Shown here piece after piece: positions 14,951 to 52,344 of a DNA stretch of 52,706 nt (positions within the stretch are counted from its first letter, which is position 1; the number at the start of each line of letters is the position of its first letter). This stretch comes from Candidatus Moranbacteria bacterium RIFOXYA12_FULL_35_19 (GTDB lineage Bacteria > Patescibacteriota > Minisyncoccia > Moranbacterales > UBA2206): NCBI GenBank assembly GCA_001784805.1, contig MFSE01000006.1, forward strand, positions 1 through 52,706, read 5' to 3'. A program made the translations under genes and the position numbers. The notes under the pieces are model-generated. The model saw nothing but the letters and a program-made list of their open reading frames with translations. It was not told where the DNA came from and did no database searches.

Positions 14951-17488
14951 TTATTTTCTCACCTCTACTTTCAATTCTTTTTCCAAGTCTGTAATAACTT
15001 TTTCCATCACCTCATCTACTTCTCTACTTTCCAATGTTCGTTCACTGGCTCCAAATTCAATATGATAAGCAAAACTGGTTTGATTGTCTTTTTTGAAAAC
15101 ATCAAACATATCCACCTTCATCACTAAGTTTCCGCCAACTTTTTTTATGATATTTTGAATATCAATCGCTCTGGTTTCACCTTTGGCAAGCATTGAAATA
15201 TCGCGAATAACCGTTGGAAATTTTTGAAGAGGCAAAAATATTTTCTGTTTTTCTGCCACCCTCATAAGCTTTTCAGTATCAAACTCACAAACTGCCACTC
15301 TTTTTTCAATTTTATACTTCTTGAGTGTCAGCGGATTAATTTCTCCAATCATTCCAATCTTTTCATTATTCACAATAATTTCCGCATTGCGCACCGGATG
15401 AGTCAGATGATTTTTTGGAAGATTTTTTTCCTTATATAAAATATTATCCTCCCCTATTCCTAAATTTTCCAATAAACTTTGAACTGTGCCTTTTAGATTA
15501 TAAAATGTTTCCGCGCCCTTATCCTTTTCCAAAACTTGCGCCATCACGAGCATTCTTTTTTCTTCTGTTCCTGTCATTCCGAACTCGTTTCGGAATCCAG
15601 ATCCTGAAACAAGTTCAGGATGACAAGAGTAAACTTTGCCGATTTCAAAAATATTAAAACTTTCAAAAATATTTATATTTGTTTTGACATTTTTCAAAAT
15701 ATTTGGTACCAGGCTAACTCGAACATATCTTTGATCAGGATTCATTGGACTAGAAAGTTCAAAATGCTTTACCCCGTGGACTACCGCCTTTGGCGGTTGT
15801 TGCAAAGCAACATAGTCCATGGGGTGAATACCATCCAAGGCGCAATTCTTAGTGTCAATCTCGGAATAGAAAGAATAATTATACATTTCATCAAAGCCAA
15901 AACCAACTGCAATTTCTCCAAGTTTTCTTTCAAAAGACAAAACTTCATTTATTTTGGCAGGTATAACTGGCTCAACAAGTGGAAGAGGTTTAATTTTTTC
16001 ATATCCCCAAATCCGTCCAATCTCTTCAATCAAATCTTCTTGAGTTTTGAGATCAACTCTAAATGTAGGAATAGTACACACTACCTTATATGGTTGAATA
16101 GTAGTGTTGATTCCTAATAAATTTAATATTCTTGTTATTTCTTTTTTTGGAATTATTTCTCCCAAAAGAGAGTTTACATATTCCAAATCTAATTTTATTT
16201 TGCAAGGCTTGATTTTATTTGGATAAATATCAATTACTCCTTCGAACTCTGCGCCAGCAGTGTGTTCCAAAACTTCTATGATTCTGACAATGGCTTTTTC
16301 CGCTAAATTTGGATCAATCTCTTTTTCAAAACGATCAGATGATTCAGTTTTCACGCCCAGTCTTGTTCTTGAGCGTCTGATATTGACGGCATCAAAATTA
16401 GCGGCTTCCAAAATTATTGTCTTGGTATTTTCATTTATGCCTGAATCTTTTCCACCCATAATTCCAGCCAGTGCCAACGGAGTTTCGCCATTAGTAATAA
16501 GCAAATCAGAATTATTCAATTCTAAAATTGATTCGTCCAATAAAACTAATTTTTCTTTATCCTTTGCTCTTCTGATAATAATTTGTAGTTTATTTTTGCT
16601 TGAAATTTTTTCTGCGTCAAAAGCGTGCATTGGTTGCCCAAGTTCCAACATCACATAATTTGTCGCGTCAACTACATTATTAATCGGACGAATTCCTGAA
16701 GCCTCCAATCTTTGTTTCATCCAACTTGGCGAATCTTTAATTTCTACATTTTCCATTACTGCGCCAATATAGCGAGAGCATAGCTTCTTGTCCTCAATTC
16801 GCACTCGTAGAGACGCAAAATTTTGCGTCTTTACACAAGGCAACTTAAGTCCATCAAAATCATATTCAAATTTCCTATTTTCTAAAACTGAAATTTCCCT
16901 CGCCACACCAACATGACTGGTTGCATCGTGCGCTCGATCCGGCAAAACCTTTATTTCAAAAATTGTATCATCTTCCACGCCTAAATATTTTTTAGCTGGC
17001 TCGCCAATTTTAGCTTTAGAATCCAAAATAAAAATTCCGCTATGATCAGTTCCGAGCCCCAGCTCGTCCAATGCGCAAAGCATACCAAAAGATTTTTCCC
17101 CGCGAATTTCCGCCTCCTTTATCTCTATTCCGTTTGGAAGCTTTGTTCCTGCTGTCGCTACTGGAACTTTATCCCCAACTGCAATATTTTTTGCCCCGCA
17201 AACAATATCCAAAACCCCCTCTCCTTTATAAGGAGAAGGTTGCCCGCCTGCCGGCGAGGCAGGGGGTGAGGTGTGTTTCCCGATATCAATTTTTGTCAAT
17301 TGCAACTTATCCGCATTAGGATGTTTTTTGATTTCCAAAATCTTCCCCACCACCACTCCATCAAAATTCCATTTTTTTTCTTCCATCCCCTCAATTTCTA
17401 ACGAATGCATCGTCAAAAGCTCCCTCACTTTTTCCGGGGATAATTTTGTACCTGATAATTCCTTTAGCCAATTATATGAATATTTCAT
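14951..17488 (-). CDS. pheT: Phenylalanyl-tRNA synthetase beta subunit, with four in-frame palindromic inserts
   Basis: MKYSYNWLKE, HPNADKL, NNVVDATNYVMLELGQPMHAFD, EDLIEEIGRIWGY. Confidence 0.97.
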   Translation of the reverse strand: MKYSYNWLKELSGTKLSPEKVRELLTMHSLEIEGMEEKKWNFDGVVVGKILEIKKHPNADKLQLTKIDIGKHTSPPASPAGGQPSPYKGEGVLDIVCGAKNIAVGDKVPVATAGTKLPNGIEIKEAEIRGEKSFGMLCALDELGLGTDHSGIFILDSKAKIGEPAKKYLGVEDDTIFEIKVLPDRAHDATSHVGVAREISVLENRKFEYDFDGLKLPCVKTQNFASLRVRIEDKKLCSRYIGAVMENVEIKDSPSWMKQRLEASGIRPINNVVDATNYVMLELGQPMHAFDAEKISSKNKLQIIIRRAKDKEKLVLLDESILELNNSDLLITNGETPLALAGIMGGKDSGINENTKTIILEAANFDAVNIRRSRTRLGVKTESSDRFEKEIDPNLAEKAIVRIIEVLEHTAGAEFEGVIDIYPNKIKPCKIKLDLEYVNSLLGEIIPKKEITRILNLLGINTTIQPYKVVCTIPTFRVDLKTQEDLIEEIGRIWGYEKIKPLPLVEPVIPAKINEVLSFERKLGEIAVGFGFDEMYNYSFYSEIDTKNCALDGIHPMDYVALQQPPKAVVHGVKHFELSSPMNPDQRYVRVSLVPNILKNVKTNINIFESFNIFEIGKVYSCHPELVSGSGFRNEFGMTGTEEKRMLVMAQVLEKDKGAETFYNLKGTVQSLLENLGIGEDNILYKEKNLPKNHLTHPVRNAEIIVNNEKIGMIGEINPLTLKKYKIEKRVAVCEFDTEKLMRVAEKQKIFLPLQKFPTVIRDISMLAKGETRAIDIQNIIKKVGGNLVMKVDMFDVFKKDNQTSFAYHIEFGASERTLESREVDEVMEKVITDLEKELKVEVRK
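15572..15625. repeat. 54-bp TGTCAT...ATGACA double-hairpin element in frame in pheT
   Basis: Encodes CHPELVSGSGFRNEFGMT; the 27 bp at 15599-15625 are identical to 26676-26702. Confidence 0.92.
15768..15828. repeat. Branched palindrome in frame in pheT
   Basis: TTTACCCCGTGGACTA/TAGTCCATGGGGTGAA stem enclosing hairpins ACCGCCTTTGGCGGT and TGTTGCAAAGCAACA. Confidence 0.85.
16807..16834. repeat. GTAG-type REP-like palindrome in frame in pheT
   Basis: GTAGAGACGCAAAATTTTGCGTCTTTAC, 28 bp with one mismatch; encodes VKTQNFASL. Confidence 0.85.
17215..17272. repeat. CCCCTCTCCT..AGGAGA..GGGTGAGG element with nested 21-mer, in frame in pheT
   Basis: GC-rich insert encoding TSPPASPAGGQPSPYKGEG between KLQLTKIDIG and IVCGAKN. 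Confidence 0.85.
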
Positions 17489-17494
17489 GTCTTT

Positions 17495-17950
17495 CTTTAC
17501 TAATTACTAATTTTATTACTAATATACTAATCCTCTAAATTTACAATTCTTTTATATCTCACACATTCTTTTGTAAAATAAACGAGTATACCTAATCTTA
17601 AATTCATCGCTTTTAAATAAGAATATAACTGATCGATATCTCTTTTTGAAAAATAATTCTTACTTTTTAATTCAATAACTATTTTATCAAAAACTAAAAA
17701 ATCAAAAATATAATAACCGATTTCTTTTCCTCTATGTTTAACTTTTGCTTTTAATTGTTCTTTAAATTCTATATTATTTTCTGAAAAAATATTTGCAACA
17801 GCTTTCTGATAAAAACTTTCTTTATGTCCATATCCAATTTCATTAAAAATACTAAAAATCAAACCAATAATCTTATAACATTCATCCTTATAAATTAAAT
17901 CATTTCTTATACTCATTAGTATATTTGTATATGATTAGTAATTAGTAAAG
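17495..17950. mobile_element. Inverted-repeat-flanked GxxExxY module between pheS and pheT
   Basis: Perfect 17-bp IR CTTTACTAATTACTAAT (17495-17511) / ATTAGTAATTAGTAAAG (17934-17950), plus further TACTAAT units. Confidence 0.65.
17527..17916 (-). CDS. GxxExxY protein (PD-(D/E)xK nuclease fold)
   Basis: GHKESFY motif, then FDFLVFDKIVIELKS..QLYSYLK. Confidence 0.9.
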   Translation of the reverse strand: MSIRNDLIYKDECYKIIGLIFSIFNEIGYGHKESFYQKAVANIFSENNIEFKEQLKAKVKHRGKEIGYYIFDFLVFDKIVIELKSKNYFSKRDIDQLYSYLKAMNLRLGILVYFTKECVRYKRIVNLED

Positions 17951-17956
17951 ACCTAG

Positions 17957-19012
17957 CTAAAATTGTTTAACAAACCTTAAATCTCCCGAATGAAACAATC
18001 TCACATCATCAATCTTATATCTCGTCATTGCGAGTCGTTCCAGTCCAAATCCCCACGCAAATCCCTGATATTTATTTCTTGGGTACCCCGCGGAAACAAA
18101 AACATTTTGGTTGACCATCCCGGCACCACCAAGTTCTAGCCAACCCGCCCACTTACAAGCCTTGCAACCCTTTCCGCCACAAACCGTGCAAGAAATATCA
18201 AATTCAAAACTTGGTTCTGTAAATGGAAAATAACTTGGACGCAGTCGCACATCCACATCTTGTTTGAAAAAAGCGGAAAAAAATTCTTTGGCAGTAAATT
18301 TCAAATTTCCTACATTCACATCCTCTCCTACAATCAAAGCTTCAAACTGATAGAAAGTATGCTCGTGAGTTGTGTCCGTAGCTTCACGACGAAAACATTT
18401 CCCTGGGACAATAATTCGAAGTGGTGGTTTATTTTTCTCCATATACCTAGCCTGCACCGCTGAAGTTTGACTTCGCATAGAAAAATTGTCCGCGTCTTTC
18501 CGCGTTCCGTCCGCGTTTGTCTGCGAGCGAAGCCAAAAAGTATCTTGCATATCGCGCGCCGGATGATCTTTGGGAATATTCAAGGCATCAAAATTATACC
18601 ATTCATTTTCAATTTCCGGACCATCAGCAATTTCATAGCCCATTGAAGTAAAAACATCTTCAATGTCACGACGCACCAGCGAAATTGGATTGAAGTGTCC
18701 TACACTTTTTTTCTTTCCGGGAATTGTCACATCAATTTTTTCTTTTTCCGCGTCAAAACTCCCACTTTCAATTTCAGTCTTTTTGTTTTTTATTATTTCA
18801 AAAATTTCATTTTTCGTGTTATTGGCTAATTCTCCAATTTGCCTTCTTTCTTCCGGTGTTAAATTTTTTAGATTTTTGAGAATAGAAATAAATTCGCTCT
18901 TTCTACCAACATATCTTTTTTCCAATTCAAAAAGAGCCTCCTCACTTGGCTTAATTTTCTCAATTTCCGCCAAAAACTGCTTCTTCAAATTTTCAATTTT
19001 TTCCTTTAACAT
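17957..19012 (-). CDS. pheS: Phenylalanyl-tRNA synthetase alpha subunit
   Basis: NFDALNIPKDHPARDMQDTF, RLRPSYFPFTEPS, FAWGFGLERL; start probably MLKEKI. Confidence 0.97.
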   Translation of the reverse strand: MLKEKIENLKKQFLAEIEKIKPSEEALFELEKRYVGRKSEFISILKNLKNLTPEERRQIGELANNTKNEIFEIIKNKKTEIESGSFDAEKEKIDVTIPGKKKSVGHFNPISLVRRDIEDVFTSMGYEIADGPEIENEWYNFDALNIPKDHPARDMQDTFWLRSQTNADGTRKDADNFSMRSQTSAVQARYMEKNKPPLRIIVPGKCFRREATDTTHEHTFYQFEALIVGEDVNVGNLKFTAKEFFSAFFKQDVDVRLRPSYFPFTEPSFEFDISCTVCGGKGCKACKWAGWLELGGAGMVNQNVFVSAGYPRNKYQGFAWGFGLERLAMTRYKIDDVRLFHSGDLRFVKQF

Positions 19013-19018
19013 AACCGT

Positions 19019-19158
19019 TGTCATTCCCGCGTAGGCGGGAATCTAGTCTCGAATTTATCTTAAAATTCAAGAATATTTTTATATACTATTTTTTCATTTA
19101 GCCTCTACACTGGATTCCCGTTTTCCTACCTCGCCGGCAGGCGGGCACGGGAATGACA
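19019..19158. repeat. TGTCATTCCC..GGGAAT (dRS3-like) miniature element upstream of pheS
   Basis: ATTCCC-N8-GGGAAT left arm; right arm GGATTCCCGTTTT[21-mer]CACGGGAATGACA; first 29 bp identical to 28690-28718. Confidence 0.88.
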
Positions 19159-19261
19159 ATTATATCGACATTTATATTCTAAGCTAAAAAAAGGCTTTTT
19201 GCAAACTAATAAAAAACTAGAATTAGGCGGGAGTTGGGCATCTCCCGCTAAAATATTAGGT

Positions 19262-19432
19262 TTATTTATAAAGTTCAACAACGGGAATTTCGTGTTTACA
19301 ATTTCCACAAGGAATAAACCACCAAACAGAATGATACTGTTTATGTTTACATTGAGGACAAATAATATAGCCAGCTCCTCCGACTCCAAATGTAAACTGT
19401 TTTTCTTCTTCTTTACTATCCTTATTGCTCAT
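19262..19432 (-). CDS. Small zinc-ribbon protein (56 aa, not in ORF track)
   Basis: GGAGG SD then MSNKDSKEEEKQFTFGVGGAGYIICPQCKHKQYHSVWWFIPCGNCKHEIPVVELYK; hairpin GCGGGAG..CTCCCGC follows. Confidence 0.65.
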   Translation of the reverse strand: MSNKDSKEEEKQFTFGVGGAGYIICPQCKHKQYHSVWWFIPCGNCKHEIPVVELYK

Positions 19433-19485
19433 AGTATCCCTCCTTTTTTGATTTTTTCGCCCAATTCTAATTTTTTATTCAATTT

Positions 19486-19725
19486 TTAAAATCCCATCTT
19501 CTGCTTTGCCATTCGGTATTGCTCTTCGGTGATTTGTCCAGACTTTTTCATTTGTTCCATCGCAGACAGAAGTTTATCCCGATTTTCCGGTTTGAAGGCT
19601 TCCTGCATTAATTTCTGTTGCTCTTGCGGACTCATATTTTGCAATTTTTTCATGGCCACTTTCTGCATCATATTTACCGCCGTCGAACTAATTTTTGACT
19701 TTGCTTTTTGAAATGGATTCCACAT
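19486..19725 (-). CDS. Small Met/Gln-rich helical hypothetical protein
   Basis: 79-aa ORF co-oriented downstream of secF. Confidence 0.65.
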   Translation of the reverse strand: MWNPFQKAKSKISSTAVNMMQKVAMKKLQNMSPQEQQKLMQEAFKPENRDKLLSAMEQMKKSGQITEEQYRMAKQKMGF

Positions 19726-19734
19726 AGTAATTCC

Positions 19735-20724: not shown

Positions 20725-20730
20725 AATTTT

Positions 20731-20809
20731 TGTCATTGCGAAGGAGCGTAGCGACTGTGGCAATCTCGTAATTTAATTCTGAGATTGCTTCGCTTCACTC
20801 GCAATGACA
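20731..20809. repeat. TGTCATTGCG...CGCAATGACA double-hairpin element at the secD/secF junction
   Basis: Terminal IR plus internal GCAATCTC/GAGATTGC; contains the secD stop codon. Confidence 0.88.
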
Positions 20810-22524
20810 GATTTTTTTACTCCTATTAACCACATTTTATTCTCCAACCATTCCCCCATCACAAATCGTAAAATTGTTCTGGTAATAACTACGGCGGTAA
20901 ACATAGAAAGCAAAACTCCGATGATAAGCGTCACTGCGAAACCTTTCACAAATCCCGTACCCATTTCCATCAAAATAAAAGCTGTGATAATGGAAGACAT
21001 ATTTCCATCGCGAATAGAAGTCCACGCCCGCTTGAAACCTTCTTCAATGGCACCCAAAACATTTCGGCCTCTTCTAATTTCTTCCTTGGTTCTTTCAAAA
21101 ATCAAAATATTAGCATCCACCGCCATTCCGATCGAAAGAATAAATCCGGCAATACCAGGGAGAGTAAGGGTTATCTGCCAAGGCGAGAAAAAAGAAAGTT
21201 TGAAAATTGAAATCATCATTCCAGCATAAATAATCAGAGAAAAAGAAGCAATAAGACCCAAAAATCTATAATACAAAAGCATAAAGACAATTACCAAAAT
21301 CATTCCGATCATTCCCGCTTTCAAACTTTTTTCCAAAGATATTTGACCCAAAGATGCCTCCACGCTTTGTTGAGAAATCAAATTTATCGGCACTGGAAGC
21401 GCGCCTTCATTAAGCCTTTTGACTAAATCTTTTGCTTCTTCAGTTGAAAAATTTCCAGTAATAACTGCTTCTCCATTAGTTATCTCGGCCTGAACTGTTG
21501 GCGCGCTGATTATTTGATTATCAATATAAATCGCTACTTGTTTTTGTAAATTTCTTTTTGTAATTTCCGCAAATAATTTTGTGCCTTCATCATCAAATTT
21601 CAAAGATACCTCCGGTTCAGAAAGTCCTTGGTTTTGAAACTGAACACTCGCATTTTTCAAGTTTTTTCCGGAAAGTCCAGTAGGAATAAATTCTTTCTTT
21701 GGCTCTGGATTAACTTTTTTTGCAATCAAAATATGAGCACTTTTAAATTCTTGACTGTCGCCCTCGCCCCCGCCTCGCGTCGACGAGTCGTCTTCGCGAG
21801 TCGAGGCGGGTTTAACTTCAATTCTTTTTATTATATGCCAGCCAAAATCAGTTTCCACCAACTCTTTGTATATTTCGCCGTCTTTCAAATTTTTGTTAAA
21901 AATTACATCTTCATATTCTGGTACAAAAGAGCCTTTTTTGACAAAATCATATTCTCCACCATTATCTTTTGACCCAGGATCTTCACTATTATTTTTCGCC
22001 AATTCTCCAAAATCTTCACCCGCTAAAGCTTTTTTTAGTAAATCTTGAGCTTTCTTTTTCGCCTCCTCATTCGCCTTTTTCAATTCTTCTTCTGGAATTT
22101 TTTCCACTGCTTCTTCCTTTTCTTCCTTAAACTCCAAAAGTGGAGTGGCCTTGATCATATCTTTCGCTTGATTTATATCTTTCACTCCGGCTAGCTCTAC
22201 AACCAATCTATTTTCTGTGCCAGATTTTGTCGTATAAACAATCGGCTCCGCTACACCAAAAGCGTTGACGCGTCTTTCGATCACATCTTGCACCGCCTCC
22301 ATCGCTTCGCCAATTTTTCCGCTTTCAATTTGAGTAACATCCGCTTTATATTCCAAATGAATTCCGCCTTGCAAATCTAAGCCTAAATTGATTTTGGCCT
22401 TGTTTAGAGCATTATAAACCGGTGAGATTTTCGAAACCGCCTTTGGATAGGAAACCAACCCCGCAAAAATTGCCAAGATTATTACCGCCCCAAATTTTAG
22501 TCTAAGTTTTTGTCTAACATTCAT
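20773..22524 (-). CDS. secD: Protein translocase subunit SecD with an inserted parvulin-type PPIase domain
   Basis: INLGLDLQGG, RRVNAFGVAEP, GMAVDANILIFER; insert has EDFGELAKNNSEDPGSKDNGG..FGWHII..SAHILI. Confidence 0.95.
   Translation of the reverse strand: MNVRQKLRLKFGAVIILAIFAGLVSYPKAVSKISPVYNALNKAKINLGLDLQGGIHLEYKADVTQIESGKIGEAMEAVQDVIERRVNAFGVAEPIVYTTKSGTENRLVVELAGVKDINQAKDMIKATPLLEFKEEKEEAVEKIPEEELKKANEEAKKKAQDLLKKALAGEDFGELAKNNSEDPGSKDNGGEYDFVKKGSFVPEYEDVIFNKNLKDGEIYKELVETDFGWHIIKRIEVKPASTREDDSSTRGGGEGDSQEFKSAHILIAKKVNPEPKKEFIPTGLSGKNLKNASVQFQNQGLSEPEVSLKFDDEGTKLFAEITKRNLQKQVAIYIDNQIISAPTVQAEITNGEAVITGNFSTEEAKDLVKRLNEGALPVPINLISQQSVEASLGQISLEKSLKAGMIGMILVIVFMLLYYRFLGLIASFSLIIYAGMMISIFKLSFFSPWQITLTLPGIAGFILSIGMAVDANILIFERTKEEIRRGRNVLGAIEEGFKRAWTSIRDGNMSSIITAFILMEMGTGFVKGFAVTLIIGVLLSMFTAVVITRTILRFVMGEWLENKMWLIGVKKSVIASEAKQSQN
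21769..21810. repeat. 42-bp CCCGCCTCG...CGAGGCGGG element in frame in secD
   Basis: Exactly 14 codons, PASTREDDSSTRGG; 9-bp terminal IR. Confidence 0.9.
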
Positions 22525-28689: not shown

Positions 28690-28819
28690 TGTCATTCCCG
28701 CGTAGGCGGGAATCTAGTTTTAAAGTTTTATTTATTGCAAAGACTCAAATGTTTTGCAAGGCTTCTGCACTGAATCCCCGCAGGAGTTTATGCTCGCGAA
28801 AGCGGGTGCGAGGATGACA
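28690..28819. repeat. dRS3-like miniature element after hpf
   Basis: TGTCATTCCCGCGTAGGCGGGAATCTAGT identical to 19019-19047; ends GGATGACA. Confidence 0.88.
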
Positions 28820-29190: not shown

Positions 29191-29220
29191 ATAATTTAAT
29201 TTAAATTAATTAGCTTATAT

Positions 29221-29334
29221 TCCTTACAAATTACGAACTTTTACGAATGTACCAATGTGAATTAAAAATAATTTTTATTTTTTATTTAATTATTTGCAAT
29301 TCGTACATTCGTACCAATTCGTAATTCGTAAGGA
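29221..29334. repeat. TACGAA-heptad inverted-repeat element between murB and hpf
   Basis: TCCTTACAAATTACGAA ... TTCGTAATTCGTAAGGA. Confidence 0.8.
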
Positions 29335-29337
29335 TTA

Positions 29338-30291
29338 CTAGAAGCCCACATATTGCACTTCTTCTTGAAGTTGCACGCCCAACTCATCGCGCACTTTCAT
29401 TTTGATAACACTAGAAAGCATCACAATATCCTGCGCTTTAGCATTGCCTACATTTACTACAAAATTAGCATGCTTTTCGCTCACTGCAGCACCCCCAATT
29501 TTTTTCCCGCGTAGCCCAACCTCGTCTATCAGCCAGCCAGCCGGAATTTTTGAATCTATTGCCTTCTGGCCAGTGTCTTTTTCAAAACGATTAATCAATT
29601 CCTGATTTTCCACCTTTGGATTCTTGAAAAAACTTCCAGAACTTGGTTTTTTAGGATTTGGATGAACTGTATCAGAGCGTTTCTTGATAATTTCTTTTAT
29701 TTTATTATTTATTTCTTCCTGATCGCCCTTTTCTAATTTCAAAACAGCCGAAATTATAATCAGATCTTTATTTTCTTTGAAAATGCTATTGCGATATGCA
29801 AACTTACATTCACTTTTCCTAAGGTTCAACCTTTGGCTAACCAAAGGTTGAACCTTTATGACTTCCACGCTTTCCGCATTATCCGCCATGCAACCCAACG
29901 GTATCCCAGCATTTCCCCGAATCGCTCCACCAACTGTTCCAGGAATTCCCGATGCCCATTCAAGTCCGGAAAGTGAATTTTGCATTGCTAAATTAACAAC
30001 TGAGCTCAAAGAGGCACCGGCAGAAACTTCAATTTTATTTTCTTGTATCTTGTATCTTGCGTCTTGTATCTTGATTACTAATCCATCAAATCCATCGTCG
30101 CTTATAAGAATATTACTCCCTCCGCCCAGCACAAAAATTTCCAAATTATTTTCTTTGGCAAATTGCAAAGCCTCAAGAAGCGCCTCTTCGTCGCTCACTT
30201 CTACAAAGTATTTCGCCGGTCCACCGATTTTGAAAGTAGTCAACGGCGCAAGAGAAATATTTTTTTGGATTTTTAAAATTGGCATAAACAA
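29338..30291 (-). CDS. murB: UDP-N-acetylenolpyruvoylglucosamine reductase
   Basis: TTFKIGGPA, LGGGSN, GIPGTVGGAIRGNAG, SGSFFKNP, KHANF. Confidence 0.96.
   Translation of the reverse strand: MFMPILKIQKNISLAPLTTFKIGGPAKYFVEVSDEEALLEALQFAKENNLEIFVLGGGSNILISDDGFDGLVIKIQDARYKIQENKIEVSAGASLSSVVNLAMQNSLSGLEWASGIPGTVGGAIRGNAGIPLGCMADNAESVEVIKVQPLVSQRLNLRKSECKFAYRNSIFKENKDLIIISAVLKLEKGDQEEINNKIKEIIKKRSDTVHPNPKKPSSGSFFKNPKVENQELINRFEKDTGQKAIDSKIPAGWLIDEVGLRGKKIGGAAVSEKHANFVVNVGNAKAQDIVMLSSVIKMKVRDELGVQLQEEVQYVGF
29816..29856. repeat. Truncated copy of the valS/RAYT palindrome in frame in murB
   Basis: TTCCTAAGGTTCAACCTTTGGCTAACCAAAGGTTGAACCTT, one mismatch; encodes KVQPLVSQRLNLRK. Confidence 0.95.
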
Positions 30292-31525: not shown

Positions 31526-32197
31526 TTATTCTAAAATATATTCTTCTAATTCTTTCTTATCCTTAAAATAATCAGCATTATTTTTTATATACTTTTCGTA
31601 TTCATCAAAATTATTATCAAACTGCCCCAAAATAATTTCTTTGTTACATAACTTTCCCTCTCTCTTCCCAGTATAATCCAAAAAGCTGGAATATGGCCAA
31701 TCCTTTTCCGAAAACCCATGAATTTCGTGATTAACATTCACATAGGCCGAAAGCAAAAGAAGATATTCGTTGGAGTCGATGTGGATGGATTTAAATCTTC
31801 CCTGAAAAAGAGCTCCTGAACGTTTGGTTTTTTTATTAAAATACATAGTATAACTAGTACCGACTTTTTGCATAAATTTAACTATGCCATTATTTTGCTC
31901 TTGTTTTACTATAAAATGATAGTGATTAGGGTTAAGACAATAAGCAATAATAGAAACGATTGGCTTCCTAAGGTTCAACCTTTGGCTAGCCAAAGGTTGA
32001 ACCTTAGGAAGCTCTGCTATTCCATTTTTATGTAAATCTCTCCATATCAACATCAATCCATCTTTTTCATCATTCAACAAACTCATCCCCAAAATAAACC
32101 TCTCATAATCTTTCTTATCCAAAAACACCTCCCGCTTATCTACTCCACGGTTATATATGTGGTAATATTCACCATTGGCAAATTCAGTTTTTCGCAT
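31526..32197 (-). CDS. REP-associated tyrosine transposase (RAYT, Y1 HUH family)
   Basis: YYHIYNRG, AYCLNPNHYHF, YFNKK..RSGALFQGRF, Y.N.N, WPYSS. Confidence 0.9.
   Translation of the reverse strand: MRKTEFANGEYYHIYNRGVDKREVFLDKKDYERFILGMSLLNDEKDGLMLIWRDLHKNGIAELPKVQPLASQRLNLRKPIVSIIAYCLNPNHYHFIVKQEQNNGIVKFMQKVGTSYTMYFNKKTKRSGALFQGRFKSIHIDSNEYLLLLSAYVNVNHEIHGFSEKDWPYSSFLDYTGKREGKLCNKEIILGQFDNNFDEYEKYIKNNADYFKDKKELEEYILE
31963..32012. repeat. 50-bp perfect palindrome inside the RAYT ORF
   Basis: Contains the 48-mer found in valS. Confidence 0.97.
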
Positions 32198-35985: not shown

Positions 35986-36720
35986 TTATTTATAATTTGA
36001 TGCTTTGAATTTTGAATTTTTCTTTCTCCATTCTTCTATTTTTTTATGATTTCCTGACAATAAAACTTTTGGCACTTTCCAATTCAAAAATTTTTCCGGC
36101 TTAGTATATTGTGAATGTTCTAAATAATTCTTGCTATTATGCGATTCGTTTTTGGTACTTTCGCTATTTCCCAAAACCCCCGGTAATAATCTAGAAATCG
36201 AATCTACTAAAATCATTGCGGGAATTTCTCCACCCGTAAGAACAAAATCGCCAACGGAAATTTCTTCGTCCGCTAAATATTTCGCCACCCTTTCATCCAC
36301 ACCCTCATAGCGTCCGCAAATAAAAATTAAATTGTCATATTTTGACAAACGCTTAGCATCACTTTGGGTATATTTTTTCCCTTTGGCTGAAAATAAAATA
36401 GTCCTGATTTTTTGTTTTGAATTTGAAATTTTAGATTTGAAATTTACCTGCCTGCCGGTAGGCAAGGTTTGAGATTTGAGATTTGTAATTTGTAATTTTA
36501 TTACATTTATAGCTCTATGAATGGGTTCAATCTTCATCACCATTCCCGCTCCGCCTCCATACGGCGTGTCATCAGTTGTTTTATGTTTATCCAGGGTAAA
36601 ATCACGAAGATTATGAATTTTAATTTCAATTAAATTATTTTTTTGTGCCCGTTTCAAAATCGACTCATTGAAATATGAACCAAAAATTTCTGGAAAAATT
36701 GTAATAATATCAAACTTCAT
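35986..36720 (-). CDS. trmD: tRNA (guanine-N1)-methyltransferase
   Basis: MKFDIITIFPE, DDTPYGGGAGMV, CGRYEGVDER, GDFVLTGGE; start 36720. Confidence 0.96.
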   Translation of the reverse strand: MKFDIITIFPEIFGSYFNESILKRAQKNNLIEIKIHNLRDFTLDKHKTTDDTPYGGGAGMVMKIEPIHRAINVIKLQITNLKSQTLPTGRQVNFKSKISNSKQKIRTILFSAKGKKYTQSDAKRLSKYDNLIFICGRYEGVDERVAKYLADEEISVGDFVLTGGEIPAMILVDSISRLLPGVLGNSESTKNESHNSKNYLEHSQYTKPEKFLNWKVPKVLLSGNHKKIEEWRKKNSKFKASNYK

Positions 36721-36749
36721 AATTATATAATACCATATTAAAAATAAAC

Positions 36750-36779
36750 AAAAAAGACCCTGCCTAGGCAAGGTCTTTT
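36750..36779 (-). terminator. Hairpin between khpA and trmD
   Basis: aaaagacc-ctgcctaggcaa-ggtctttt with flanking A/T runs. Confidence 0.55.
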
Positions 36780-40199: not shown

Positions 40200-40913
40200 C
40201 TAAAAAGAAGCGCCTCCTCCAAAGTAAATATCTTTTATTTTTTTATTTTTCAAAATATCTTTGCCTCCTTCCACCGCAATTGTACCATTTTCTAGAATGT
40301 AAGTCCTGTCAGCTATTTCAACCGCCTGTTTGGCATTTTGTTCAACCATCAAAACAGAGATTCCTTCATTTTTGATTTCCACTATCTTCTCAAAAACTTC
40401 TTTCATTGTCTTTGGATCTAGCCCAAGAGATGGCTCGTCTAAAAGAAGAATTTGGGGATTTTGAATCAAAGCACGGGCAATTGCCAAAAGTTGTTGTTGA
40501 CCGCCGGATAAATTTCCCGCCAGAGCATTTTGCTTTTTTTCAAGAATTGTAAATTTTTTGAAAATATTTTCTATGCTTCTTTTGACAATATCTTGATCGT
40601 TGATTGTAAACGCGCCCATTTCTAAATTTTCCAAAACCGTCATGTTGGAAAAAACTTGCCGGCCTTGCGGAACAAAACTAATTCCCAAAGAAATCAATTC
40701 GTGTGTTTTCAAGTCAGTGATATCAATATCTTTGAAAATAATTTTCCCACTATAAACATCCGCCAAACTAAAAATACTTTTCAGCGCCGTTGATTTGCCG
40801 GCGCCATTAGGACCGATTAGAACAACAATCTCCTTCGGATTAATTTCTAAATAAACCCCGTGTAAAATTTTCGTTTTATTATAACCAGAATTAAGATTGA
40901 CTATTTTTAACAT
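40200..40913 (-). CDS. livF: Branched-chain amino acid ABC ATPase
   Basis: GPNGAGKST, VPQGRQVF, LSGGQQQ, LDEPSLGL, VEQNA. Confidence 0.92.
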   Translation of the reverse strand: MLKIVNLNSGYNKTKILHGVYLEINPKEIVVLIGPNGAGKSTALKSIFSLADVYSGKIIFKDIDITDLKTHELISLGISFVPQGRQVFSNMTVLENLEMGAFTINDQDIVKRSIENIFKKFTILEKKQNALAGNLSGGQQQLLAIARALIQNPQILLLDEPSLGLDPKTMKEVFEKIVEIKNEGISVLMVEQNAKQAVEIADRTYILENGTIAVEGGKDILKNKKIKDIYFGGGASF

Positions 40914-42231: not shown

Positions 42232-42642
42232 TTATATTTTTTCAATATTTTCCAAAAATTCATCTATATCATCAAGGCCATTTCGCAAGATATTTTCCAA
42301 TACCGCGTAATCAACTTTCTCATAATCATGTGCCATAATATTTCGAAATCCTGTCATCGCAACCATTTTTCCAGTAATGCCATCAGAAATTATCCCATTC
42401 TCATTAAGAATATGAAAAAATTCACTCATTGTAGTTGGCTTGCGAAAATTTTTATAGGAAACAATCGCGTCTGCTAAATCAATCGTGGCTTGCACAGCTA
42501 AATATAAATATCTTTCCAGCGCTCCTTTTTTATCCACATCCGCCAAAATTTCCGGAAATGGAATATTTTTATACCGCTCTAAAATCTTAAGGTATTTGCG
42601 AACGGCACTTATTTTATTTTCAATCACGGTTATCGTTGTCAT
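42232..42642 (-). CDS. hepT: HEPN (DUF86) RNase toxin
   Basis: RNIMAHDY = RX4HXY motif; follows the MNT gene. Confidence 0.88.
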   Translation of the reverse strand: MTTITVIENKISAVRKYLKILERYKNIPFPEILADVDKKGALERYLYLAVQATIDLADAIVSYKNFRKPTTMSEFFHILNENGIISDGITGKMVAMTGFRNIMAHDYEKVDYAVLENILRNGLDDIDEFLENIEKI

Positions 42643-42645
42643 AAA

Positions 42646-43038
42646 CTAGGCTTTAGTTAAATTATATTTTCGAAGCATCGTAAGAAAATCAAAATATTCC
42701 TGCAAAATATGTGGCTCAACCAAAATTTTATATGGCTCTTTCTTGCAAATAAGTTGGCCGTCTCTTATAATTTCATATTTTATTTCTGGCGACTCGATGG
42801 TATTTAAAATCACTAAATCAACTTTTTCTGTCTTAAGCACACGGGAAAGTTCGTCCATTAAGCGAAATTTTATATCAAACATTTTTTGTTTGTCTTTTTC
42901 GTCTAAATAAACAGCAAAATCATAATCACTCATCGGTCCCGCTTCTCCCCGCGCCCGAGAACCGAAAAAATACGCCAGTTTAACTGCCTGAAAACGCTCA
43001 AAAATCTCTCTTATTTTCTCTTCCAATTCTTTTTTCAT
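42646..43038 (-). CDS. mntA: Minimal nucleotidyltransferase antitoxin
   Basis: FGSRARGEAGPMSDYD = GSX10DXD; KVDLVILN. Confidence 0.88.
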   Translation of the reverse strand: MKKELEEKIREIFERFQAVKLAYFFGSRARGEAGPMSDYDFAVYLDEKDKQKMFDIKFRLMDELSRVLKTEKVDLVILNTIESPEIKYEIIRDGQLICKKEPYKILVEPHILQEYFDFLTMLRKYNLTKA

Positions 43039-44603: not shown

Positions 44604-45653
44604 TTATTTTGAGCCTTTTTTCTTTTTCAATTCCAAAAACTTTTTAACTTCACGGTCAAAATCAGATTCAAAAAGACCATCCTGAATCGGCCGATATTTT
44701 TCAAATTCGCTTTCAGCAAAGGACTTAGCTATTTCGGCTGTAATTTTTCCTGAATTTTCCAATATTTTTTCATTATTATATTTCAAAAAAGCATTCAGTT
44801 TTTCCGACCAATCTTTCATTGTCATAGGGACACCTTTTTCCGCTTGATGCTCCGCATAGTCTAAATACATCGTCACAATTCTGTTTAAAAATTTTATTTC
44901 TTTTTTATCCAAATAATTTTTGGCAATAACGACATCGGATTTTAAAATTTTTCCATCCGGAGATTTTTTCCAAGTCATAAGCCCCATATGATCTTTCTTG
45001 TGATCGGCCCGATTAACTATCAATTCCGCAGCGGTATGACCATGCGTAGCAAAGTGAAGTTTATTTTGTACGGTAGCAAAAAAATCTTTAGTTGTTGGAG
45101 AATTTATGTCATAATCCATAGCACTGGCATAGATGTCAGTAATTTGCTGATAGAAATTTCTTTCGCTTTCTCGAATATCACGAATTTCGAGAATTAAATC
45201 CTTGAAATATTGTTTACTCAAATATGCTCCGTTTTTTAATCGAACATCATCCAACACATAGCCACGAGTAGCAAAGTTTTTCAAAACCTGCGTGGCCCAT
45301 TTCCGAAAATTAGTTGCTCTTTCGGAATTAACCCTAAATCCGATTGCAATAATTCCCTCTAAACTGTAATGCTCAATTTCTCTGGCAATCTGCCTTTTTC
45401 CTTCATTTTGAACTATTCGAAATTTTCGAATAGTTGCCTCAAAATTTAATTCACCCGACTGAAAAATATCCTTTATATGATAATTTATTGTGTTAATCTC
45501 CACTCCAAAAAGCTTAGCAATGAGTTTTTGCGTCAGCCAAACATTTTCATCTTCCACTCTTACTTCAATACCACCTTCGCCTGCTTGAGAAGTAAAAACC
45601 AAAAATTCCGCAGTTGAATTTCGAATGATAAGTTTTTTATTGTCTTTTTTCAT
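44604..45653 (-). CDS. RhuM-family protein
   Basis: VWLTQKLIAKLF, IIAIGFRVNSERATNFRKWA, EIRDIRESERNFYQQITDIY, FFATVQNKLH. Confidence 0.9.
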   Translation of the reverse strand: MKKDNKKLIIRNSTAEFLVFTSQAGEGGIEVRVEDENVWLTQKLIAKLFGVEINTINYHIKDIFQSGELNFEATIRKFRIVQNEGKRQIAREIEHYSLEGIIAIGFRVNSERATNFRKWATQVLKNFATRGYVLDDVRLKNGAYLSKQYFKDLILEIRDIRESERNFYQQITDIYASAMDYDINSPTTKDFFATVQNKLHFATHGHTAAELIVNRADHKKDHMGLMTWKKSPDGKILKSDVVIAKNYLDKKEIKFLNRIVTMYLDYAEHQAEKGVPMTMKDWSEKLNAFLKYNNEKILENSGKITAEIAKSFAESEFEKYRPIQDGLFESDFDREVKKFLELKKKKGSK

Positions 45654-46400: not shown

Positions 46401-46407
46401 AAAAAAA

Positions 46408-48158: not shown

Positions 48159-48172
48159 TTTTATGCAATATT

Positions 48173-48829
48173 TTAATTAAATGTCATTCGCCTATAAACC
48201 TCTCGCGTGCAATCAACATCTCGTTTGCAATACTCGCAAATTTCTTGGGTTTTTCCAGCTTTCCAAAAATCATAAACTTGCGAGCCATCAATGCCATCTT
48301 TAGGAGTGGGAATGCCAAGCGCTAGCGCCAAACTTTCCAAGCCTACATTGGCGTTAGCCCATTTCACCCATTCTTTCATAGTGTCATAAATGGGATAATT
48401 TCTGTAACGAGCAAAATTTAATTCATAAGCTGGTTTGACTTTGTTCACAATTGAGCGTTGATAGATGAAACGCAAATCAAAATCCATCACATTATGGCCA
48501 ATAAATTGCACGCCGTAGTCCGGCCACTGCGGATTGCGAGATGGCATACTAATAGAATCGACAATTTCCCAAAACTTTCGAAGCATCCCGACTTCATCGC
48601 CATCACCATTTAGAACTTCGACTGACTGGTCATCAATGGCATAGGCAATGCAAAGAATCCGACCGTATGCGCCATCAAAAGAAGTGCCGAGAAGATGTTG
48701 TTCGAAATCAGTTTCGCCTTCCTCTTTTTTATTTTTCTTGGCTTTTTTCTTGTCATAAAGAAAACGCAAAATTTCGTGTTTATCTTCTGATGCCGGAAGC
48801 GTTTCAATGTCCAAAAACATTTTTCGCAT
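48173..48829 (-). CDS. Stand-alone PolB-like 3'-5' exonuclease (DEDDy)
   Basis: FLDIET, GHNVMDFD, EYCKRDV. Confidence 0.85.
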   Translation of the reverse strand: MRKMFLDIETLPASEDKHEILRFLYDKKKAKKNKKEEGETDFEQHLLGTSFDGAYGRILCIAYAIDDQSVEVLNGDGDEVGMLRKFWEIVDSISMPSRNPQWPDYGVQFIGHNVMDFDLRFIYQRSIVNKVKPAYELNFARYRNYPIYDTMKEWVKWANANVGLESLALALGIPTPKDGIDGSQVYDFWKAGKTQEICEYCKRDVDCTREVYRRMTFN

Positions 48830-48884
48830 ATATTTTTTATTTAATTAAATTAATTACATAATTAAAATGTCTAAAATTTAAACA

Positions 48885-48914
48885 TAGGTATGTGCGTAGG
48901 TACGACCGTAGGTA
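48885..48914. promoter_or_regulatory. Three TAGGTA direct repeats with 12-bp period
   Basis: TAGGTA at 48885, 48897 and 48909 in the divergent intergenic region. Confidence 0.5.
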
Positions 48915-49065
48915 ACCTTATTATATATTATACACTATTTTTTCCTATTAAAAAACTCCCACTAAACACAACCGCTTATATTTCATGATGGCAAAATGAA
49001 ATATAAAGCAATAGTTGTTGTATTACTAATTATCAACAACTACAACTAATTGACTAATATGAATT

Positions 49066-49233
49066 ATGACAAAAAATAAAAAACAACGCGTGACCTTATT
49101 CCTCAATCCAAACCTTTTGAAACACGCCAAAGCCCAAGCCATCGTTAAGGAAATCAGCCTGACTGCGCTAATGGAAAAAGCTTTATCCAAATATTTACCG
49201 AAAGAAACTATCATTAAAAAAGATGCCATATAA
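49066..49233 (+). CDS. Ribbon-helix-helix small protein (55 aa, not in ORF track)
   Basis: MTKNKKQRVTLFLNPNLLKHAKAQAIVKEISLTALMEKALSKYL..: strand-helix-helix pattern. Confidence 0.7.
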   Translation: MTKNKKQRVTLFLNPNLLKHAKAQAIVKEISLTALMEKALSKYLPKETIIKKDAI

Positions 49234-49305
49234 GTTTATTTTAATAATTAAAAATGGCCTAGAAAGTATCCGTTTTAAAATTAATAATTAACTAACAACA
49301 ACAAT

Positions 49306-49662
49306 ATGGATTCATCAAATTCTCCCAGCACAAAACCACTTTATCGGGGCACACAAATTGTTTGGTATCTTCTTGGTCTCTTGGAAGTACTACTCGCATT
49401 TCGATTCGTTTTAAAATTACTTGGAGCCAATCCATCTGCCGGATTTTCTAGCTTTATCTATGGAATAACCTACATTTTTACCGCTCCTTTTCTAAGTGTG
49501 TTTGGTATGTCAAAAGTTTCGGGCAGTATTTTCGAATGGACAACTCTTCTAGCGATGTTTGTTTATGGAGTGATTGCTTACGGAATTATTAAACTGTTTT
49601 TGATAGGAAAAACAGTTTCCACCCTGGAAGCCGCCGAAAAACTAAACGCGCAAGAAAAATAA
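49306..49662 (+). CDS. YggT-like membrane protein
   Basis: LLAFRFVLKLLGANP..FIY.IT..F..PF. Confidence 0.75.
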   Translation: MDSSNSPSTKPLYRGTQIVWYLLGLLEVLLAFRFVLKLLGANPSAGFSSFIYGITYIFTAPFLSVFGMSKVSGSIFEWTTLLAMFVYGVIAYGIIKLFLIGKTVSTLEAAEKLNAQEK

Positions 49663-49681
49663 TCAACTAACTAAAAAATAT

Positions 49682-49921
49682 ATGGGTATTATTTTGTGGA
49701 TTGTCTTTGGGGCAATCGTAGGCGTAGTCGCTTCAATGGTTATGGGAAATAAGGACAGTTTGATAATAGACATTATCATAGGTATAGTCGGAGCAGTATT
49801 AGGCGGGTGGCTGATGAGTTTTTTCGGAAAAGGCGGAGTTACCGGATTCAATTTATACAGCTTTCTAGTAGCTTTGCTCGGAGCAGTGGTACTGATTGCT
49901 ATTGTGAGAGCTATTCGTTAA
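49682..49921 (+). CDS. GlsB/YeaQ/YmgE (transglycosylase-associated) membrane protein
   Basis: IILWIVFGAIVG..IIIGIVGAVLGG..VALLGAVVL. Confidence 0.88.
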   Translation: MGIILWIVFGAIVGVVASMVMGNKDSLIIDIIIGIVGAVLGGWLMSFFGKGGVTGFNLYSFLVALLGAVVLIAIVRAIR

Positions 49922-49939
49922 AAACAATCACAGAATTGA

Positions 49940-49970
49940 AATAAAAATACCCGAACTGGGTATTTTTATT
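49940..49970. terminator. Bidirectional terminator-like hairpin
   Basis: aataaaaataccc-gaact-gggtatttttatt. Confidence 0.7.
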
Positions 49971-49989
49971 ATTGTGTCATTTTTTCCAT

Positions 49990-50033
49990 AAAAAAACCCA
50001 GGGAGCTAAGTTCTAGCTCTCCCTGGGTTTTTG
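49990..50033. terminator. Terminator-like hairpin
   Basis: aaaaacccagggag...ctccctgggttttt. Confidence 0.7.
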
Positions 50034-50046
50034 CCTTTTCGGCAAT

Positions 50047-50148
50047 TTATTTTTCTTTTTTTGGAGGAAGTTTTACCTTTTCTTCCCCAAGGAACATCCA
50101 GCTCAAAAGCCATGTGTATTTTATGGCCTTGATTATTTTTTCCGTCAT
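50047..50148 (-). CDS. Candidate 33-aa small protein
   Basis: AAGGGAG SD then MTEKIIKAIKYTWLLSWMFLGEEKVKLPPKKEK*, followed by a terminator. Confidence 0.4.
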   Translation of the reverse strand: MTEKIIKAIKYTWLLSWMFLGEEKVKLPPKKEK

Positions 50149-50513
50149 CGCTTTCTCCCTTTTTTGATTGTTTAACAACCCGACGTTGCGGATTGCGATT
50201 AAAAAAACTAAGCAACAAAAAAGCAAAAAACACTCTGAATGAGTATTTTTGTTTTTTTGTATCCCAATTTTTTGCGATTAGTCCAAAATCTATTCGTGCA
50301 CTGTACTAAAATGCACTAGGGATTCATATAGCTCCCATTGGCATTGGCGTTCTCCGACGTAAAGTCGGAGTCGACCGCCGGACAATAACCAATGCATCCC
50401 ATTATATCTTTTGACGGATATAACTTTAAATTAGGACACATCTCTGGATTATTGTCAAATTCTCCCTAGAAAGGAGGTGATCCATCGACAGGTTCCCCTA
50501 CCGATGCCTTGTT

Positions 50514-51349
50514 CATGTTTCTATTCTCCGCGTTTCCACGGGCATGGACTATATCTTCATCCCGATTAAATCGGGAGCTAACGTGTAGTCTCTACGGGGT
50601 CAAAGGCAGTTTGTAAATCATATCGGGATGCATATAAGGAAAAACTATTTCCTTAAATTTTTTAATATTACCAACTGGAATGTAAAGTCTATTACCTTTA
50701 CTGTCCCAATTAAGATTCGCTTGAAAATTAAAATTATTTTTCAAGCAATCTATGAGCAACAAATTTTCTTCCCTTGAAAAACTATGTGTACTTATAGTAA
50801 CGGTTTTCTTAGAAGTACTAAGACTGCCGTCATCCATAAACCACACAGCCAAACTTATTGGATGTACGAAAATTTTTTTAATATTTAGTGGAATTATTTT
50901 TCTCTTAACCGGATAGAATGTCTTTCGAAATTCTGTCATTTGCGGGTGAGAAATTGTCCTGAATCTAAATGACTGATGTTGCGCTAAATATTTCGGTTGG
51001 GTCAAAACCCAGCCTTTAAATATTTCAGCAGCCCAGAAAACATAGTCTTTATGTTCAGCTTTCTGTTCCACCTGCAAACGAAAACTTTTTCCTGTTAAGG
51101 TCGAAATTAGAGAACCATCGCCTAGAATTTTTCCAATCAAAAATCCTTTTTGAATTTCTGTGAGTTCCAAACTATCTCTAATATTCCTAACAATTTTCGA
51201 ATTCCAATTTTTTATACCTCGACTTCCCACGGTATTACCATAAATTAATTATGCTTTAATTATAACATACTTAACTTTTAGGCTTCACCGTTATAGTTAG
51301 TTTTTTCATGAGGATTACTCCTCAAGGTCGCAACGATTAGGGTAATCAA
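50514..51349 (-). mobile_element. Group I intron in 16S rRNA after the U1498 equivalent
   Basis: Exon ends in U and intron ends in G; guide GUUGCGAC pairs with GUCGU (U.G) and AAC; R element GTAGAGACTAC and S element AAGATATAGTCC. Confidence 0.93.
50592..51230 (-). CDS. Two-motif LAGLIDADG homing endonuclease
   Basis: LIGKILGDGSL and LAVWFMDDGSL; inside the group I intron. Confidence 0.92.
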   Translation of the reverse strand: MGSRGIKNWNSKIVRNIRDSLELTEIQKGFLIGKILGDGSLISTLTGKSFRLQVEQKAEHKDYVFWAAEIFKGWVLTQPKYLAQHQSFRFRTISHPQMTEFRKTFYPVKRKIIPLNIKKIFVHPISLAVWFMDDGSLSTSKKTVTISTHSFSREENLLLIDCLKNNFNFQANLNWDSKGNRLYIPVGNIKKFKEIVFPYMHPDMIYKLPLTP

Positions 51350-51438
51350 ACGACTTCACCCTTATCATCGATCCCACCCTGGCCCCCGATTTAATTCGGA
51401 GTCTTCCGGTGTTACCGACTCTCTTGGTGTGACGGGCG

Positions 51439-52344
51439 ATTATCTATCTAAAACTAGACATTGATGTTCCCATCGTGCCTGCGGATTTCCCGCACACGAC
51501 GAGCTCTAATGCATTTTTTGCTTAAGGGCATAAATTTTTCTAAGCCCAGATTCTTTAAAATGATAATTTTTCATAACCAGTTTAATAATTCTGCAAAAAA
51601 TTTCAAAGTCACCTTTCTTCGAGCGTAATCTCAAAGAATTCCTTTTAAAAAATGGAATAATAATTTTTTCCAAATCATTTCTATTGGCTACTTCAAAACG
51701 ATAACAATCTTGATGATTTTTTCGCTTATCTGGTTGAAAGTAAACATTGCCACAACCAAAATATTTTTTAAGCTTATACAGAATTTTTTTATCTTTCGCT
51801 ATAAGTTTCAAATAAAATCTTGGTTCGACTTTTGTTCGTCTTTTAACTTCCTTCTTAGAATCAGGATTTTTTACATAAACTGTAAAGCTTCCTTCTCCAT
51901 CGACTAAGCCAACAATATAATTTGGATTTATTTTTTCCATATGCTATTGAGTGAATCCTTCTCCCGTCCCGCTTAGCGGGACAGAATACTATGATTCAGC
52001 TGACTTCTTACGCTGCGTAAGTTTCGTTATTACAATTTTATTATAACATAAAATTGAAACAGCGCAAGATCTCCTAGGGTTATTTAATATTCTTTTCTTT
52101 ACATTCCAGTAAGTCTTTTGCATGCCTGCCTCGTCGGCAGACGGGCATCTTCCCTATGCTCACCACCTGTTCAAAGGTCGATGCGACTTTCCCGATATAT
52201 CGGGATAAACTGGACTGTAATTTGCCTTCAGATCCTTCACCGTCATTCTCGCGAATGACGACTACCTGTTAGCTACGCTCCGATTGGGTTTCGGAGGGAG
52301 AGATTTAAACTCTCTAGATTATTAAACTGCCTAGCGCTTTTATT
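51439..52344 (-). mobile_element. Group II-like intron in 16S rRNA between the C1399 and C1400 equivalents
   Basis: Splits GTACTCAC|CGCCCGTC; ends in AT; domain-V-like hairpin CGTCGTGTGCGGGAAATCCGCAGGCACGATG at 51471-51501; no U|..G group I ends. Confidence 0.8.
51506..51940 (-). CDS. Single-motif LAGLIDADG homing endonuclease
   Basis: YIVGLVDGEGSF..YFGCG..IIPFF..KKGDFEIF; stops just before domain V. Confidence 0.93.
   Translation of the reverse strand: MEKINPNYIVGLVDGEGSFTVYVKNPDSKKEVKRRTKVEPRFYLKLIAKDKKILYKLKKYFGCGNVYFQPDKRKNHQDCYRFEVANRNDLEKIIIPFFKRNSLRLRSKKGDFEIFCRIIKLVMKNYHFKESGLRKIYALKQKMH

Follow-up and report, generated by a model that had tools for sequence, protein, structure and literature searches.

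What is a 21-bp sequence, bounded by CCYGCCT and AGGCRGG, doing in several quite different surroundings on one contig of a candidate-phylum bacterium? The contig is MFSE01000006.1 of Candidatus Moranbacteria bacterium RIFOXYA12_FULL_35_19, analysed here over a stretch of 52,706 nucleotides that we call the window. The 21-mer is a real, discrete insertion unit, and it is spread much more widely than the original prediction, which was made from the window, could see. It goes into DNA as a block, in a definite strand sense and beside a target purine, it leaves no target duplication, and genes tolerate it. We consider it to be a discrete, non-coding, non-autonomous micro-element that is mobilised in trans and that resembles the small dispersed repeats (SDRs) of cyanobacteria and the repetitive extragenic palindromes (REPs), and we give this reading a probability of roughly 0.7.

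The window is AT-rich (~34% G+C), its GC skew is negative throughout and its genes lie mainly on the minus strand; the nearest named relatives of its PheT, TrmD and SecD proteins are from Candidatus Moranbacteria / Moraniibacteriota. The original prediction had listed four near-identical 21-mers, and all four are found where it placed them (Table 1). Three of them fit one degenerate consensus (≤3 mismatches allowed), with 0, 1 and 2 mismatches for the copies that begin at 17243, 19125 and 52125, respectively. The fourth, at 36447, can be matched to the consensus only with an indel (edit distance 3) and represents a sister family. No consensus match was found in 100 dinucleotide shuffles, against 3 in the window, and a chance origin of the three matches is excluded. 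The nesting of every copy in a repeat or in an intron, also part of the earlier description, is seen for 17243, 19125, 36447 and 52125 alike. The last of these lies in the first insertion or intron of the 16S rRNA gene (~52343-51436), upstream of the LAGLIDADG open reading frame (ORF) of that insertion, and the host flanks there lengthen the hairpin of the unit by 3 bp. Not noticed previously was that pheT, trmD and secD carry the units at 17243, 36447 and 21769 in frame, with the reading left open. Empty copies of two of the host sequences were sought inside the window, and none was found at ≤3 mismatches.

The claim that this is a very small mobile unit is supported by orthologues of the host genes. 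Unfilled sites were found among the orthologues of both PheT and TrmD, and because such empty sites exist, the mobility of the 21-mer is supported. For PheT, we classed the query and 120 matches (121 sequences) by their state at the site corresponding to 17213..17278. No insert is present in 73 of the 121 sequences, other small inserts are present in 34, the host repeat stands alone in 4, and the host repeat together with PASPAGG is present in 3, the seven residues mapping exactly to 17243-17263; the site could not be anchored in the other 7. An alignment of the best 36 PheT matches has the empty, host-only and host-plus-unit states side by side. The peptide PASPAG occurs in 7 of the 121 PheT sequences, at five different positions. 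A second small hairpin repeat in pheT is empty in the window and carries a 7-residue unit in its loop in three orthologues, and the pairwise alignment with one of the filled orthologues has a gap of exactly 7 residues. Among 121 TrmD sequences, the tandem heptamer array that hosts the sister unit is absent in some, present alone in many, and present with a 7-residue unit in others. PASPAGG is carried by 3 of the 121 and the sister-family peptide LPTGRQ by 4, the latter at three different positions of the array, and the array itself varies in length among orthologues.

To see how far the 21-mer extends beyond this lineage, we scanned a collection holding one genome per species. It is present in at least 123 loci, labelled here by L and a number, with full flanks in 80 of those listed, and the listed loci come from about 109 assemblies as counted by accession prefix; the target and context statistics below were computed on 122 copies taken from them. 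Tallied by record title, which may be unreliable for metagenome-assembled genomes (MAGs), 43 of the loci listed belong to Bacteroidota, 36 to Patescibacteria groups, 10 to "Gammaproteobacteria", 6 to Omnitrophota, 4 to Elusimicrobia / Endomicrobiales, 4 to Acidobacteriota, 3 to Ignavibacteria / Chlorobiota, 2 to Bdellovibrionales and 2 to Phycisphaerae, with 5 unclassified and 8 singletons that include one Bathyarchaeota MAG. Six of the listed loci are from isolates, all of them Bacteroidota (Gracilimonas, Aureibaculum, Agriterribacter, Arenibacter, Zunongwangia and Dokdonia). For genomes of ~40% G+C, we estimate fewer than one chance match over the whole collection; L010 and L057, with ~70% G+C, could be chance matches. 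The contig labelled Bathyarchaeota (L049) has an exact copy in the ORF of a DinB-type polymerase, and the contig may come from a genuine archaeal carrier or may have been mis-binned. Plasmid and phage collections yielded no full-length exact 21-mer, and the partial matches there were at chance level (E ≥ 0.6) and mostly to GC-rich organisms. The 21-mer, its reverse complement and its six-frame peptides had no match in the literature text searched, a body that most subscription journals lie outside. From its exact insertion and its presence across distant phyla, the 21-mer seems to rank among the smallest mobile DNA units on record.

The sequence of the unit is rather uniform, since two variants that differ at position 3 account for 103 of the 125 distinct copies. 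One subfamily is altered at positions 5 and 12, and loss of the central GCCGGC is also confined to one subfamily. As single-stranded DNA the unit is predicted to fold with a 4-nt 5' tail (CCYG), a 6-bp GC stem and a 5-nt loop, and the loop is as conserved as the ends. The five variable positions, which are the only ones at which the scan pattern permitted changes, are in the tail, in the loop, or appear as G.T wobbles on the top strand. We considered the changes at positions 5 and 12 (both in 9 copies, only one or the other in 3 and 8) as compensatory evidence for an inner hairpin and rejected this, because the fold puts position 12 in the loop and because the scan pattern allowed only those changes. 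When pairs of termini are counted by spacing, 118 are found at 21 bp and no more than 5 at any other length up to 100 bp, with 4 at 20 bp and 5 at 42 bp. These last five are two tandem dimers, two self-nested copies and one pair in secD. A class of longer elements sharing both termini was not found in 297 kb, where the other spacings were scattered singles. Copies inside a copy of the same family occur in L014, L077, L104 and L060, always after a G of the inner part, and L033 and L071 have tandem copies of the 21-mer.

The pair in secD had been noted as a 42-bp insert with the ends CCCGCCT and AGGCGGG, and it is present as described and folds with a 9-bp stem. The 14-residue insert that it encodes is found in about a dozen of 120 SecD sequences with a variable centre, and it is missing in the closest relatives (77-80% identical). 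The 42-bp hairpin behaves as a separate family with similar ends.

The position of the unit relative to its target is quite regular. Among 122 copies, a purine stands immediately 5' of the unit in 109 (p = 2e-20) and G in 68. TG directly precedes the unit 27 times against 6.9 expected, and orthologues show that this purine belongs to the host and not to the unit. Position -1 alone is constrained, with no consensus at positions -8 to -2. Absence of a target duplication, as originally claimed, agrees with the count of flush 2-bp repeats (6 among the 122 copies, 8.3 expected); one-base identity across the junction is found in 49 of 122, where 31.8 would be expected. Enrichment inside other repeats had also been proposed, and tandem heptamer arrays do hold 12 of 122 copies, compared to 8 of 2440 controls. 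The top strand of the unit is the G-rich strand in 16 of 17 tandem contexts, and no orientation bias was seen when the GC skew of the flanks was taken locally, over 100 or 280 nt.

The suggested preference for extruded hairpins held up only in part. Perfect flanking stems of at least 6 bp are present in 13 of 122 copies versus 54 of 2440 controls, and the joined flanks fold more stably than controls (-18.4 vs -14.9 kcal/mol, p = 1.3e-4), but the test of hairpin loops was not significant, and at shorter stems the placement of the junction in a loop does not differ from controls. A preference for hairpins is only weakly supported, and the tandem heptamer arrays and the purine just 5' of the unit are the clearer signals. 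As for insertion into tRNA genes, L023 and L121 adjoin tRNA-like sequence, but ARAGORN calls no tRNA in either, with the unit in place or after in-silico excision, and this possibility was rejected.

The 21-mer is also common in genes. Of 61 copies in the 3-kb loci, 35 fall in open frames of at least 600 nt, compared to 847 of 1220 random positions, so long open frames hold the unit nearly as often as they hold random positions. Pfam families were found in 33 of the 44 copy-bearing ORFs (one gene was counted twice via overlapping loci). By arithmetic on coordinates, the domain match spans the unit in AlaRS (L017), topoisomerase I (L054), PGK (L064), ribosomal protein S8 (L046), PFOR (L040) and DUF4256 (L044). 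A direct reading of the sequence shows all six frames of the 21-mer to be free of stop codons, and as its 21 bases make up 7 codons, host reading frames stay open. The frames used are skewed to the Pro/Ala/Ser/Gly readings, which 13 of the 19 antisense and 8 of the 16 sense copies show; this fits translation followed by selection. Copies persist in essential genes and in the 16S rRNA intron.

We considered the possibility that the 21-mer is not mobile itself, but is a passive rider in composite repeats or is copied by gene conversion between host repeats. Longer flanks are shared among L002/L003/L112, L109/L110, L073/L105/L090 and L012/L067, and the host arrays vary in length among orthologues, as this explanation would allow. 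Most of the 122 flanks are mutually unrelated, however, with the unit at unique positions in many different genes, and a rider should not leave orthologues that retain the host repeat and lack exactly 7 residues, nor a terminus spacing that peaks at 21 bp, so we regard it as unlikely. We are slightly more sceptical of the 21-mer as an excision footprint, or a minimal internally deleted derivative, of some larger element whose inverted termini it shares. Footprints would differ in length, whereas terminus pairs number 118 at 21 bp and 5 at 42 bp and are otherwise scattered singles; no class of longer elements with both termini turned up in the 297 kb, and the loop is conserved to the same degree as the ends. 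Conserved termini about a variable centre, the 7-9 terminal bases that the 42-bp secD hairpin has in common with the unit, and a 44-nt terminus pair in L091 are what speak for such a larger parent.

A functional motif under selection, for instance a terminator, an uptake signal or a site bound by protein or RNA, whose copies were gained because they are useful, could account for a sequence that is near-identical across phyla, intact in an AT-rich genome and predicted to form a stable small hairpin. It is very improbable in our judgement, as the unit turns up, in either orientation, within essential coding sequences, an rRNA intron, other repeats and the unit itself, is lacking in close orthologues, has lost its central GCCGGC in one subfamily, and is gained by block insertion rather than by point mutation. 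We give the least credence to insertion via RNA and reverse transcription, or via template switching during replication, in place of a transposase. The window contains no reverse transcriptase that we could find. The tolerance of G.T wobbles on one strand only would suit such a route, although the scan pattern biases which wobbles are seen, and the excess of one-base junction identity would suit microhomology-guided copying, although one base is very little microhomology.

Returning to the reading that we favour, the 21-mer is added to DNA as an exact 21-bp block, the target not being duplicated, with a fixed strand sense and just 3' of a purine, G being the commonest and TG enriched. Tandem heptamer arrays, the loops of other small hairpin repeats and other copies of the 21-mer are frequent landing sites. 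We infer the use of single-stranded DNA, with the unit probably moving as a folded single strand, and a sequence-specific enzyme would act in trans, the most plausible being an HUH/Y1 transposase related to those of IS200 and the RAYTs. Selection may later remove those insertions whose 7-residue peptide is harmful. The window encodes a protein of the IS200-like Y1 (HUH) transposase family (Table 1) that scores 32.9 bits with Pfam Y1_Tnp (cut-off 23) and whose 30 nearest Atlas clusters are all Y1_Tnp (30/30). This gene is only a candidate for the trans-acting enzyme.

A number of observations weigh against this reading. The Y1 protein fails the model for REP-associated tyrosine transposases (RAYTs), scoring 31.5 bits where the cut-off is 80, and a sequence search turned up no PDB relative. 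No unit lies beside its gene, whose neighbours are 16 and 7 nt away, the nearest units being those at 36447 and 21769. Y1_Tnp was absent among the 184 ORFs scanned, out of 212 flanking or host ORFs, in a scan of which part was run at E ≤ 1e-8, where a match as weak as that of the window's own Y1 protein would be missed; tblastn of that protein against the 123 listed loci gave nothing below E = 0.66. The searches run linked no enzyme to the unit. The ends of known IS200/IS605 elements are unlike a single hairpin, and REP families are normally species-specific, while the 21-mer is near-identical across phyla. The fit of the variable positions to the predicted fold is weak and biased evidence, because the scan pattern allowed only those positions to change. 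The junction lies in a predicted hairpin loop in 11 of 122 copies versus 48 of 968 controls (p = 0.085, not significant). Finally, the filled pheT site is common to orthologues that are only 81-89% identical, so the window copy in pheT is old, and no insertion event was caught between near-identical genomes.

Among known systems, the closest kind appears to be the SDRs of the Nostocaceae, a likeness that we draw from their description. Elhai et al. reportedly characterised these in 2008 as dispersed, hairpin-forming sequences of ~21-27 nt that are found in tandem heptamers and other repeats and are inserted precisely. The unit would be similar in size and dispersal, at 21 nt with 3 copies and 1 sister in 52.7 kb and at least 123 loci elsewhere, and in its embedding in tandem heptamers (12/122 vs 8/2440), in other repeats and in itself (L014, L077, L104). 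It differs in that none of the at least 123 listed loci has a cyanobacterial title and in that the 21-mer is common inside coding sequences. One passage of a later paper places SDR5 between the 3rd and 4th base of HIP1, i.e. after G (PMC4390886), and a statement in another limits the reports of SDRs to the Nostocaceae (PMC5861425).

REPs are described in two papers as imperfect palindromes of 20-40 bp with an unpaired tail, which sometimes lie in genes and which Y1 enzymes are believed to mobilise in trans (PMC3733652, PMC3116915). The unit is likewise a small imperfect palindrome, its stem having 6 bp, its loop 5 nt and its tail 4 nt, and a Y1_Tnp gene is encoded in the window. Compared to REPs and REPINs, however, it has the tail CCYG and no GTAG or CGTC tag, its copies are mostly singlets and not inverted pairs, it does not flank the Y1 gene, and 35 of 61 copies are in open frames of at least 600 nt where REPs are mostly extragenic. 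Moreover, one sequence is found across phyla and REPs are normally specific to a species.

The Rickettsia palindromic elements (RPEs) are selfish palindromes that sit in frame in protein genes and are translated, but they are ~100-150 bp long and are not known outside one genus. The unit is also palindromic and in frame within protein-coding genes, at 21 bp and in many phyla. IS200/IS605 elements move by "peel and paste", with no target duplication, strand-specific insertion 3' of a short target and recognition of hairpins; they carry tnpA, and their two subterminal hairpins differ from each other. The unit likewise leaves no target duplication and goes in with a definite strand sense, and hairpin recognition may be a further likeness; in contrast it has one hairpin in 21 nt total and, as its target signal, only a purine or TG with no fixed tetranucleotide. 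Bacterial MITEs (miniature transposable elements with inverted repeats; Correia/NEMIS, ERIC, RUP and others) cannot move on their own, have inverted termini and are mobilised in trans. The unit would share these properties, trans movement being what we propose for it, but it is only 21 bp long and has no excess of flush repeats of ≥2 bp. A passage in PMC3733652 gives bacterial MITEs 70-300 bp and target duplications.

How units of ~20 bases move has been a question since SDRs and REPs were described, and a recognisable 21-mer in at least 100 species, cultivable Bacteroidota among them, makes it testable. For annotation, it matters that aminoacyl-tRNA synthetases, ribosomal proteins, SecD and TrmD gain loops of 7 residues from the unit and that it interrupts rRNA introns, and the length differences that it makes between close relatives could pass for sequencing error or functional divergence. 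One could go further and suppose an active, frame-neutral "nano-transposon" in a dozen or more bacterial phyla, which would be moved by conserved, horizontally shared machinery and would continually seed 7-residue insertions in essential proteins, structured RNAs and repeats. We hold this wider view tentatively, at somewhat less than even odds. If it is true, the "nano-transposon" would be smaller and more widely distributed than any other mobile DNA unit so far described.

Table 1. Copies of the 21-bp unit in the window, their host sequences and related features.
Feature	Position	Strand	Context
Canonical unit, copy 1	17243..17263	+	Inside pheT (14951-17488, minus); antisense in-frame PASPAGG, residues 76-82
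Short host repeat plus unit	17213..17278	-	PheT tRNA-binding domain, residues 71-92; ~20-residue insert
Second small hairpin repeat in pheT	15572..15625	-	Residues 622-639; empty in the window
Canonical unit, copy 2 (1 mismatch)	19125..19145	-	Intergenic, secF/pheS, in loop of host hairpin
Host hairpin of copy 2	19112..19157		Uninterrupted related hairpins at 19019-19046 and 28690-28717
42-bp hairpin, 7-9 terminal bases similar to the unit	21769..21810	+	Inside secD, read PASTREDDSSTRGG
IS200-like Y1 (HUH) transposase-family gene	31526..32197	-	Interrupted in frame by 48-nt palindrome, 31964-32011
Tandem heptamer array hosting the sister unit	36409..36498	-	Inside trmD, translated
Sister-family unit	36447..36467	+	In trmD (35986-36771, minus), read LPTGRQV; borders uncertain by 2 bases
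Unit, copy 4 (subfamily in which position 5 is T and position 12 is A)	52125..52145	-	First 16S rRNA insertion/intron

Other small repeats are found at the same loops of PheT, TrmD and SecD. The peptides derived from them are of the types ETR.IAS, PKAGPP.AE and P.KSPDGDNGAS, as well as VALQQPPKAVVH and PVNFAEAKHGAS, and such families come and go by lineage at shared loops. As several repeat-derived peptide families occupy these loops, the 21-mer is one member of a larger set of micro-insertions. A perfect palindrome of 48 nt, present three times (12177-12224, 29815-29862 and 31964-32011) in the valS, murB and Y1 transposase-like ORFs, appears to be another small repeat family that is in frame. 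SecD itself (20773-22524, minus) contains a parvulin-type peptidyl-prolyl isomerase (rotamase) domain at residues 135-237, a fusion also seen in Moranbacteria orthologues according to precomputed Pfam lists, and the final 11 residues of SecD seem to derive from a repeat.

The 3' part of the 16S rRNA gene (52706-50480, minus) is split by two insertions with LAGLIDADG ORFs at 51506-51940 and 50592-51230. As to intron type, the second insertion has a sub-threshold group I match and the first has weak matches to group II domains. A further insertion of ~109 nt, made up of small repeats, is near 52680-52580.

Heptamer arrays of the TACGAAA type are intergenic and in both orientations (7243-7284, 9602-9650, 11079-11127 and 29218-29337), and they surround a glycosyltransferase cluster and the RNase P RNA. 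A small gene of the GxxExxY / PD-(D/E)XK nuclease family (17527-17916, minus) lies between pheS and pheT, which are usually neighbouring genes. A HepT-like RNase and nucleotidyltransferase pair, resembling a toxin-antitoxin system, and a RhuM-family gene (42232-43038 and 44604-45653, minus) are set among duplicated genes of a branched-chain amino-acid ABC transporter, and a direct repeat of 219 nt is present at 40701 and 43119.

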